Below are positions 33,165-34,211 of a stretch of 64,000 bases of DNA, in pieces. A program made the translations under genes and the position numbers. The notes beneath the pieces were generated by a model. The model saw nothing but the letters and a program-made list of their open reading frames with translations, made no database searches and was not told where the DNA came from. Source of the DNA: Polyangium mundeleinium (GTDB taxonomy: Bacteria; Myxococcota_A; Polyangia; Polyangiales; Polyangiaceae); the NCBI RefSeq assembly GCF_028369105.1, contig NZ_JAQNDO010000001.1, positions 2,035,711 to 2,099,710 on the forward strand, read 5' to 3'. The stretch's first letter is position 1. Every line of letters begins with the position of its first letter.

Positions 33165-34211
33165 ATGAGCGAAGCGATGCCGCTCGAACAAGCGGTTCGG
33201 ATCGACGACGCGGTCGAACATTCGTTGGCGTTCCTCGGCGCGGTCCTGGGCGCCCTCGGAGGGCTCGCGCTCGGCCTGCTCGTGTTCGGTACGGGCCCGC
33301 TCGGGTGGCTCGCCGCCGCGGGCGTCGCTGTCTTTCTCTCGAACGCCGGCGAGAAGGCGTTCAAGAACCTGAAGCACGAAGCGGGGGACGTGGCGGAGGG
33401 GTCCCCGAACGTATTCGTCGGCGAGCCAGGAAGAAAGGCAGCGCGTGCGCGCGACAAGGTGCGTTGTCACGACCTCCAGATCGCCACCGGGTGCGCGACG
33501 ATCCTCATCAACCAGGAGCTCGCGGCGCGGGTGAAGGAGGAGACCGTCTGTGACGGCAAGCTGAAGACGGGCTGCGAGACGGTGCTTTATGGCGGTCCGT
33601 CCGCGCGGGTCTTGGCGAAGCGGGCCTCGGGCGAGCTGCCGATGTGGTTCTGGGTTGGCCGCGAGGTCGTCGATTGGGTCACGATCCTCGCGCCGACGGG
33701 CGCGGCGGACCCCTCGAAATGGTGGAGGCTCTACGACCGCACCTCGCGCATTCTCACGTTCGGCGACAAGGCGGCCGGGTACGCGGCAGCGATTGCTCAG
33801 GGGCTCGGGTACCAGGAGGTTGCAGACGTGATCACGGGCGTCACCGATCACCCCGCGTACGTTTGGGGTACGACCCTGTTCGGCGGGGTCGGCGTGGCGC
33901 GGGATCTCCGAAGGGCGCGGGGGGGCGATCCTCCTCCGGGTCCTCCTCCTCCTCCGGGTCCTCCTCCTCCGCCTCCGGGTCCTCCGCCGCCGCCGCCGCC
34001 GCCACCGCCTCCTCCGGGTCCTCCGCCGCCGCCACCGCCGCCACCGCCACCGCCGCCGCCGCCGCCGCCGCCGCCACCGCCGCCGCCGCCGCCGCCGCCG
34101 CCGCCGCCACCGCCGCCACCGCCACCGCCGCCGCCACCGCCGCCGCCGCCGCCGCCGCCGCCGGGTGGAGGAGGCGTGAATCTCGATAAGGGCGGTCGCC
34201 CAGGCGGCTGA
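33165..34211 (+). CDS. prePAAR-motif PAAR protein with TM regions and a ~90-residue polyproline C-terminal tract; no recognisable toxin domain
   Basis: AVRIDDAVEH at residues 10-19 fits the prePAAR pattern AARxxDxxxH; 2 TM helices; three AAR motifs (RKAARARD, ELAARVKE, GPSARVLA) with Cys pairs; then (P3-12 G)n. Confidence 0.75.
   Translation: MSEAMPLEQAVRIDDAVEHSLAFLGAVLGALGGLALGLLVFGTGPLGWLAAAGVAVFLSNAGEKAFKNLKHEAGDVAEGSPNVFVGEPGRKAARARDKVRCHDLQIATGCATILINQELAARVKEETVCDGKLKTGCETVLYGGPSARVLAKRASGELPMWFWVGREVVDWVTILAPTGAADPSKWWRLYDRTSRILTFGDKAAGYAAAIAQGLGYQEVADVITGVTDHPAYVWGTTLFGGVGVARDLRRARGGDPPPGPPPPPGPPPPPPGPPPPPPPPPPPPGPPPPPPPPPPPPPPPPPPPPPPPPPPPPPPPPPPPPPPPPPPPPPPPPGGGGVNLDKGGRPGG
33930..34163 (+). 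repeat. CCN trinucleotide repeat (about 78 codons) encoding polyproline
   Basis: Uninterrupted ccg/cct/cca codons with 4 interspersed ggt/ggg; the same stretch reads as poly-Ala/Gly in the shadow ORFs 33644..34189(+) and 33841..34338(-). Confidence 0.9.

Follow-up and report, generated by a model that had tools for sequence, protein, structure and literature searches.

What a spike-tip protein of a type VI secretion system (T6SS) does with several dozen consecutive prolines at its C-terminus is the question raised by a locus of Polyangium mundeleinium. The window analysed here, a stretch of 64,000 nucleotides, contains on the + strand an open reading frame (ORF; 33165-34211, ATG start) of 348 codons plus stop, whose product combines a prePAAR-like motif, an N-terminal transmembrane (TM) hairpin, a PAAR domain and a proline tract. 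By function and descent this is a prePAAR/PAAR spike-tip protein. The reading that we favour, at a probability of about one half, is that the tract is a slippage-expanded, translated polyproline II (PPII) spacer tail on an exported spike-tip protein.

The tract covers residues 256-333 (33930-34163, +; 78 codons) and has the layout P3 G P5 G P6 G P12 G P48, that is, 74 Pro and 4 Gly, the latter encoded by GGT. Its last part is an uninterrupted run of 48 Pro (34020-34163, +), written as (CCG)n with CCA interruptions, and Pro accounts for 77% of the tail. TRF scored the CCG array at 255 and resolved two periods, one of 18 bp at its 5' end and then one of 3 bp. Elsewhere in the window no Pro run in any frame was longer than 8, and the tract is far beyond chance. 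A preliminary description of this DNA had given about 90 residues with more than 90 Pro, encoded by (CCN)78; the prolines were overcounted, and the figure of 78 codons holds only if the four GGT codons are included. It had placed the stop 15 codons after the tract, and there it is: the last Pro is followed by GGGGVNLDKGGRPGG (34164-34208, +), ending in the family-typical PGG, and the stop codon. Since the repeat unit is 3 nt long and lies inside the coding region, slippage alters the length of the tract and cannot switch the gene on or off; it is neither a frame-shifting nor a promoter-spacing repeat of the kind that makes contingency loci phase-variable, and all differences between the orthologues are in frame. 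Arg does not occur in the tract, and PRP-type Arg/Pro motifs of Pro-rich antimicrobial-like toxins were not found in it. A collagen-like (PPG)n reading was rejected, as Gly is not present at every third residue. Two further frames across the region, a poly-Ala/Ser frame (33644-34189) and an antisense ORF (33841-34338), were set aside as arising incidentally from the repeat; the Pro frame is the one backed by the Pfam hit and by the orthologues described below. A scan of 33000-34600 for promoters and terminators found none. Apart from the tract, only one perfect triplet array in the window reaches 7 or more copies, (GTC)8 at 19250-19273.

The order prePAAR-like motif, TM region, PAAR domain, already read from the letters in the preliminary description, was borne out. 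The prePAAR-like motif AVRIDDAVEH (residues 10-19; 33192-33221, +) corresponds to the prePAAR consensus AARxxDxxxH with the second Ala changed to Val, and the regular expression A[AV]RxxDxxxH matched it as well as 118 of 150 relatives. With Pfam prePAAR_I the window protein scored below threshold (E 0.055); 12 of 18 close relatives passed, and those that pass have the canonical AAR in this motif. Residues 71-133 (33375-33563, +) form the PAAR cone domain, recognised by Pfam (PAAR_motif, PF05488, E 2.3e-10), by NCBIfam (T6SS_PAAR_dom) and by Foldseek, in which an AlphaFold2 (AF2) model built with 18 relatives as input (mean predicted local distance difference test score, pLDDT, 84.5) matched the solved PAAR cones of c1882 and VCA0105 (4jiw_D, 4jiv_D) with probability 1.00. 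TM-grade hydrophobicity was confined to residues 20-60 (Kyte-Doolittle mean up to 2.24), and there the model places a helical hairpin (residues ~20-65; 33222-33359, +) of helices 22-41 and 45-65 with pLDDT above 86. The region after the PAAR domain (residues 155-251; 33627-33917, +) was modelled as four helices (160-175, 185-213, 217-227 and 230-251) that are amphipathic and below TM grade (hydropathy maximum 0.85), and Foldseek found no structural match to them. This region is possibly a degenerate second TM domain (TMD); its motifs SGELPxWF and DxPxY are kept across the family. Structure in the AF2 model ends at residue 251, and none was modelled after it.

Related genomes established that the tract exists and is read in the Pro frame, as it is present in three Polyangium genomes and its 3' end is conserved in frame. 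In P. fumosum DSM 14668 the orthologue (P0001) shows 94% identity in its first 254 residues and then reads GGPPPPPGPPPPGPPPPPPPGPPPPPPG…, a (P4-7 G)n pattern, until the contig (L001, SSMQ01000090.1) runs out at position 44517, within the polyPro tract. The tract likewise forms one boundary of a 1,091-bp contig of P. sorediatum (L008, JARZHI010000171.1), whose reverse strand encodes at least 26 Pro (CCG/CCA codons) followed by AGGGVNLGKG and a stop; the other end of this contig is the Pro/Ala-rich linker of the DUF2169-X gene discussed below. The complete orthologue of Polyangium sp. 15x6 (P0002) is 50-52% identical and has a different Pro-rich tail (…RPALPAPPRQLALPAPEPRLALPPPSGGTGSTGGGTPGG, stop); its convergent downstream gene is the same as in the window, and both flanks of the tract are syntenic with its complete locus. 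When the 3' ends of the window, P. sorediatum and sp. 15x6 were aligned as DNA, the post-tract sequence, the stop and the start of the convergent gene were conserved in frame, with C-termini GGGVNLGKG in P. sorediatum, which carries a 15-bp in-frame deletion, and …GGGTPGG in sp. 15x6. A search of genome contigs with the N-terminal 254 amino acids returned P. fumosum only, and no complete polyPro orthologue of the window protein.

The two outcomes that the preliminary description had named as fatal to its view, a tract of artefactual origin and a reading frame that shifts within it, were thus not found, and the comparison of orthologous loci that it had suggested revealed tracts of different internal organisation in P. 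fumosum and P. sorediatum and another Pro-rich tail in sp. 15x6. Its suggestion that the tract could be hypermutable also agrees with these data. Because the Gly spacing and the CCA pattern differ among the window, P. fumosum and P. sorediatum, despite 94% identity between window and P. fumosum outside the tract, the comparison indicates a tract that evolves rapidly, probably through repeated in-frame slippage or duplication of triplets and short blocks. The breaks of the short-read assemblies are a warning about its length, not about its existence. Together with the linker of the DUF2169-X gene, at which the P. sorediatum contig also ends, the tract is a systematic point of breakage in assemblies.

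The prolines of the tract are encoded by CCG (51), CCT (14) and CCA (9), and never by CCC, against a background of 36.6% CCC in nine genes of the window (0/74; P ~2e-15). CCG and CCA together make up 81% of the Pro codons, and the 14 CCT lie in the 5' part. The same avoidance was seen in 12 unrelated metagenomic polyPro linkers (L016, L032, L046, L060, L065, L067, L068, L077, L078, L096, L099 and L124), in which CCC makes up 25% of the codons at isolated prolines but 3% of those within tracts, where CCT and CCA are enriched. Among the Pro codons, CCC and CCU are reported to be slowly decoded and disfavoured in consecutive-Pro contexts, CCG and CCA to be decoded faster and favoured there, and diprolines containing CCC to promote +1 frameshifting (PMC12856214). 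We add that runs of CCC would be C-homopolymers, in which replication is prone to slip by ±1. The bias speaks against neutral junk and against a designed stall, and argues that the tract has probably been selected for translation through it and for maintenance of the frame.

To place the tail in its family, 1.84 billion cluster representatives were searched exhaustively with HMMER, which yielded 399 relatives. The approximately 24 closest clusters (at 50% identity) have the N-terminal 250 residues in common and then diverge into Pro-rich low-complexity tails of 45-143 residues, most of them tandemly repeated and with a sequence that differs by lineage: a tail is conserved while its sequence turns over rapidly. 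The repeat units include (PQLALPAPx)8-12, (ARPALPPPP)n, (PETPKIIIPE)n, (YVPPQTTAxTK)n, (GAPTG)n, (TPNPGAKLIMPGEA)n and P-x-G-x-x-R-T-x-GG-φ-L. Frequent among the relatives is a 9-residue unit of the xPxLALPAP type, common to lineages that are only 39-52% identical N-terminally; a 27-bp (9-residue) DNA repeat was found independently in L002, L004 and L005. Ten of the approximately 24 tails end exactly in GG, mostly as P-G-G (P0002, P0004, P0007, P0012, P0013, P0014, P0036, P0043, P0051 and the window protein), and six more in PG, GP or AG. No known sorting or processing signal fits the C-terminal GG; a GlyGly-CTERM, PEP-CTERM or LPXTG signal was dropped, there being no TM helix after the GG terminus, and a beta-clamp-binding (QLxLxL-like) reading of the QLALPAP repeats was dropped for want of testable support. 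A profile search from the family alignment was swamped, probably by poly-Pro words, and added nothing.

In the window protein and 17 close relatives, Pfam recognised only PAAR and prePAAR domains. More distant homologues have, at the position of the tail, Ntox46, a Scabin-like ADP-ribosyltransferase, Ntox21, HNH, TNT or DUF4329, and some have Rhs bodies instead; in the toxin-bearing P0041 and P0059, short Pro-rich linkers stand at this position. Among proteins of solved structure, the best sequence relatives are Tre23 (7pq5, E 2.3e-8) and Tas1 (6ox6, E 4.7e-6). The preliminary description was therefore right that the tract stands where a toxin region is otherwise found. The replacement, however, characterises the clade rather than this protein alone, and the homopolymer is the Polyangium-specific extreme of a variable Pro-rich tail. 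All named members of the family belong to the Polyangiaceae, except one metagenome-assembled genome (MAG) labelled Candidatus Nanopelagicales.

Long homo-Pro runs are not confined to this family. In 241 million metagenome records, (CCN)30 matched at least 120 stretches, many of them poly-C/poly-G artefacts at contig ends, so that no frequency can be derived; among the matches listed, about a dozen credible bacterial-type proteins have 30-70 consecutive Pro between folded domains. Examples are L067 (170-379), with 70 Pro before a glycoside-hydrolase-like domain, L060, with 40 Pro before an OmpA-like domain, and L046 (46 Pro), L099 (44), L124 (44) and L077 (41). The flanking domains resemble glycoside hydrolase, OmpA, Big/FN3 and Calx-beta types, as in secreted and surface proteins, and no PAAR relative was among the sampled polyPro proteins. 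A run of 48 Pro is thus rare and striking but has precedent as a spacer: the tract is, as had been said of it, far longer than typical PPII linkers, yet homo-Pro linkers of 30-70 residues do occur among the matches listed. What is unusual is that the run is hosted by a T6SS tip protein and that no folded domain follows it.

The PAAR gene is the fifth in a co-oriented row vgrG, ATPase, eag, eag, PAAR, with vgrG 1.85 kb upstream. The vgrG gene (29342-31312, +; Pfam Phage_GPD 1e-70, Phage_base_V, Gp5_trimer_C) opens the module and is followed by a gene for a 318-residue ABC/SMC/RecF-like P-loop ATPase (31309-32265, +; Pfam AAA_21 6.8e-7, AAA_15, SMC_N) and by two genes for Eag-type chaperones (DUF1795/DcrB; 32270-32698 and 32717-33148, both +; Pfam DcrB 2.3e-13 for each), the second a divergent paralogue that is 26% identical to the first. 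The row recurs in seven loci; the module was found in the window, P. fumosum, sp. 15x6, two metagenome contigs, two Polyangiaceae MAGs and Chondromyces crocatus. All seven loci have a gene for 317-327 residues at the ATPase position (besides the window, L001 8145-9101, L002 8157-9113, L004 6169-7128, L005 2747-3712, L006 2704-3660, L129 5159-6142 and L130 5179-6132), and six, the window among them, give a weak P-loop/ABC-type Pfam match. The ATPase has no sequence relative in the PDB; its only further matches, to PtuA and RecF, were sub-threshold. No T6SS core gene was found among the ORFs annotated between 23 and 57 kb of the window, and, as far as tested, the module stands as an orphan vgrG island, with a malic-enzyme gene on one side and unrelated genes on the other. 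In none of the seven loci was an immunity-like gene recognised, unless the X domain described next is one. A 1,870-residue signalling protein encoded at 51890-57502 (-), with Ser/Thr kinase, AAA_16/STAND, GAF, PAS, HisKA and HATPase domains, is unrelated to the PAAR finding.

Two bases past the PAAR stop codon ends a convergent ORF of 752 codons (34214-36472, -), whose product consists of a DUF2169 adaptor domain (~35579-36403, -; Pfam 1.4e-70), a Pro/Ala-rich linker of ~170 residues (PAPVAPPAPVAVPPPAPVAPPP…; 35066-35578, -) and a C-terminal domain of ~280 residues (~34217-35065, -), which we call X. The DUF2169 family is known as T6SS adaptors. The X domain has no Pfam, NCBIfam or PDB relative, and only nine homologues were detected (P0152-P0160), the named ones from Polyangium or other Polyangiaceae. 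AF2 predicts for it a helical bundle together with an OB-like barrel (core pLDDT 75-93), to which no convincing structural neighbour was found. X adjoins the PAAR gene in the window, L002, L004, L006 and L129: convergent to it in the window, L002 and L006, and unfused, directly downstream and on the same strand in L004 (9102-10337) and L129 (8107-9465), with 40% identity (E 2e-56). It could be a cargo, a co-chaperone or an immunity protein. Just before the domain lies a motif, H[DE]AxAxLGGxAAAS[DN]AAA, that is conserved in the X proteins of other loci. In L007, where T6SS genes are lacking in the vicinity, an orphan X-domain gene (9001-9801) lies 5 bp ahead of a gene for a 2-oxoglutarate-Fe(II) oxygenase (9806-10591); the match to PF13640, a family that includes prolyl hydroxylases, was barely above threshold, and this is a single observation.

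Against this background the window protein was compared with the known prePAAR and PAAR proteins. With the class II prePAAR effectors (Tse6, Tas1 and Tne2; PMC7773334) it shares small size, a prePAAR-like motif, N-terminal TM helices, the PAAR domain, post-PAAR helices, adjacent Eag/DUF1795 genes and an operon with vgrG, and Tas1 is a detectable sequence relative. Unlike them, it has neither a C-terminal toxin domain nor an identifiable immunity gene, its post-PAAR helices are not TM-grade, and its module contains two divergent eag genes, the extra conserved ATPase and the X-domain partner. The class II motif GxxxxGxxLxGxxxD was found as an exact regular expression in none of the window protein and 150 relatives, nor in relaxed form in the window protein; the published motif is a logo, which makes this a weak test, and an expression that matches no relative at all is uninformative. 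With the class I prePAAR Rhs effectors (Rhs1, RhsA and Tre23) the protein shares a prePAAR-like motif, a single clear TMD region and the PAAR domain, Tre23 is its best PDB sequence match, and Pfam prePAAR_I matches 12 of 18 clade members; however, class I proteins exceed 1000 residues against 348 here, and the window protein has no YD/Rhs repeats, cage or toxin. It fits neither class cleanly: there is no Rhs part, the second TMD is doubtful and the class motif was not found. Of the features expected of a prePAAR effector, the N-terminal TM helices and the adjacent Eag gene are there, the toxin domain is missing and no immunity gene was identified. Orphan PAAR proteins such as c1882 of E. coli and VCA0105 of V. 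cholerae have the same cone fold and no toxin, but are ~95 residues long and lack the prePAAR motif, TM helices, chaperones and tail.

For the tail itself, the closest likeness is to the homo-Pro/PPII linkers (L067, L046, L099 and L060), with 30-70 Pro, mainly CCG, CCA and CCT codons and avoidance of CCC, which are presumed to be rigid spacers; the difference is that those join two folded domains, whereas the host in the window is a T6SS tip protein, in which the tract is followed by no more than 15 Gly-rich residues. The Pro-rich spacers of the TonB type are another example of PPII linkers. EspF and EspFu, effectors of the type III secretion system (T3SS) that consist of Pro-rich tandem repeats, resemble the protein in that a secretion or targeting module is followed by variable repeats and no enzymatic domain; they differ in the secretion system and in the repeats, those of EspF carrying SH3- or GBD-binding motifs, none of which is recognisable here. 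Full-text literature searches turned up neither a PAAR or prePAAR protein whose tail is polyproline or a Pro-rich repeat nor any account of the LALPAP-type repeat; the survey that defined prePAAR focused on 15 proteobacterial genera (Ahmad et al. 2020, PMC7773334).

We propose that the tail is the genuine translated C-terminus of an Eag-chaperoned, VgrG-mounted T6SS spike-tip protein. It belongs to a Polyangiaceae clade of small prePAAR proteins in which a Pro-rich tandem-repeat tail takes the place of the toxin domain; in the lineage of the window, P. fumosum and P. sorediatum, an ancestral 9-residue repeat of the xPxLALPAP type would have been turned into (Pro5-7 Gly)n units, and in the window and P. 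sorediatum further in-frame slippage of CCG/CCA triplets would have led to the near-homopolymer. Such a tail would act by its physical properties, not by a specific sequence, as an extended, non-folding PPII rod or bristle. At 3.1 Å per PPII residue, its fully extended reach would be ~15 nm for the 48-Pro run and ~24 nm for the 78 residues, real polyproline being less rigid owing to cis-Pro kinks. It may project from the PAAR/TM-helix tip and present or tether the short Gly-rich C-terminus, and its candidate partners would be DUF2169-X or the second Eag in the loaded spike, or the target envelope after firing and TM insertion. A rigid PPII spacer or docking element was among the roles suggested in the preliminary description and is the one that we, too, infer and give the odds of about one in two stated above; homo-Pro interdomain linkers in other bacterial-type proteins make long PPII spacers an established solution.

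Several points weigh against a spacer. The spacer or tether role and the contacts of the tail are a proposal, and the metagenomic polyPro linkers precede a folded domain, of which there is none after the tract in the window. Relatives conserve hydrophobic φφφP cores that are missing in the polyPro clade, and a sequence-specific motif function fits such cores better than a pure spacer does. A tail is not universal, P0006 having a non-repeat tail of 28 residues and P0015 none; X is present beside the short-tailed P0006 (L006) and absent beside the long-tailed protein of Chondromyces, so that the linkage between tail and X is not strict. In P. sorediatum the 15-bp deletion has removed the terminal GRPGG, and a presented C-terminus therefore cannot be essential. 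Finally, the copy number in the window is that of the assembled sequence, which supports the existence of the tract and not its exact length.

Some of these points also agree with a functionless remnant. The toxin would have been lost, and the leftover linker between the second TMD and the toxin would drift and expand by slippage in a genome of 68-70% GC, leaving the protein with the role of a TM-helix-bearing PAAR tip, a 'molecular grease' giving the spike a sharper point for other cargo, and with a neutral tail. The extreme variability of the tails, the short-tailed and tailless members, the lost GRPGG of P. sorediatum, the short Pro-rich linkers at the same place in P0041 and P0059 and the failure to identify an immunity-like gene in any of the seven loci all agree with this, and GC-rich genomes easily generate Pro/Ala/Gly low complexity, the DUF2169-X linker being an example. 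We nevertheless consider a remnant unlikely: some 24 divergent clusters have retained a Pro-rich tail (45-140 residues), in frame to a recurrent GG; the 9-residue LALPAP-type unit is common to lineages 39-52% identical N-terminally; that CCC is avoided completely speaks for purifying selection to preserve frame and translatability; and a neutral (CCG)n of 240 nt would be expected to decay or be deleted. If the tail is instead the payload, it would be a linear-motif array or PPII ligand, delivered by the TM helices, that sequesters a target protein, for example a PPII-recognition module such as profilin, SH3, WW or EVH1 in eukaryotic prey, or a bacterial target by beta-strand addition via QLxLP-like cores. 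It occupies the position of the toxin, its layout, (P5-12 G)n P48, is reminiscent of the FH1 domain of formins or of poly-L-proline, which binds profilin, the tandem cores of the relatives (QLALPAP, KIIIPE, RIILPG, GGVLTP) are typical of motif arrays, and the lack of an identified immunity gene fits a target that the producer does not have. The hydrophobic cores are, however, lost in the polyPro clade, so no motif spans the whole family; neither an actin-related element (WH2, FH2 or other) nor the Arg-Pro pattern of Pro-rich antimicrobial peptides was found in the window tail; and there is no known target, binding being purely a proposal. A payload of this kind is quite improbable in our judgement.

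The preliminary description had also offered a translational throttle that depends on elongation factor P (EF-P). The 74 Pro would then stall ribosomes and tie output to EF-P, and we would see as the effect a low PAAR-to-VgrG stoichiometry or a nascent chain retained while the Eags capture the TM helices. PPP and PPG are established motifs of EF-P-dependent stalling (PMC12856214), the tract with its 74 Pro in 78 residues is full of them and would be expected to slow elongation, and it lies at the 3' end, past all folded parts. The codons, on the other hand, look tuned for passage, with CCC absent and 81% CCG/CCA, even if 14 slow CCT stand in the 5' part; a few PPP motifs would suffice for EF-P dependence; and most tails of the family are not poly-Pro (PQLALPAPK, YVPPQTTAVTK), which means that a throttle cannot be the function of the family. 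A throttle by design thus appears very unlikely. Least credible of all is a tract, or a length and frame, that was produced by assembly or sequencing: two short-read assemblies of related species do break exactly in the tract, (CCG)n is hard for polymerases and basecallers, and many metagenomic (CCN)30 matches are poly-C/poly-G at contig ends, but the tract was found independently in three genomes, with flanks syntenic with the complete sp. 15x6 locus, a continuous frame into the conserved C-terminus and stop, and an interrupted CCG/CCA/CCT pattern that is no homopolymer.

The Pro-tailed PAAR proteins form a small, undescribed, myxobacterial family; the tract itself is low-complexity and spacer-like, with precedents elsewhere, and the gene module around it is conserved and unexplained. 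It is a natural test case for how some 50 consecutive Pro codons are translated and stably replicated, CCC avoidance, common to unrelated polyPro linkers, is a simple and testable rule, and the tract is a reproducible breakpoint for short-read assemblies of Polyangium genomes. More speculatively, and with rather little confidence, the Polyangiaceae module could be a distinct, undescribed class of T6SS tip in which a repeat tail, rather than an enzyme, is the functional element; the module consists of VgrG, the ABC-like ATPase, a pair of Eags and the prePAAR/PAAR protein whose Pro-rich tail ends in GG, with or without the X protein. If so, the tail would be a ligand array that titrates a prey protein (in the polyPro lineage a PPII binder, e.g. 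profilin) or a tether that loads X as cargo, and the 48-Pro run would be a lineage-specific re-targeting or re-tuning of the tail. By current definition, prePAAR effectors carry toxins and fall into two classes, and a toxin-less, Pro-tailed clade does not fit this scheme. The clade keeps the prePAAR motif, TM helices, PAAR domain, two chaperones and VgrG, gains a dedicated ATPase and a new partner domain, and may reveal a non-enzymatic payload or a new mode of tethering cargo to the spike.

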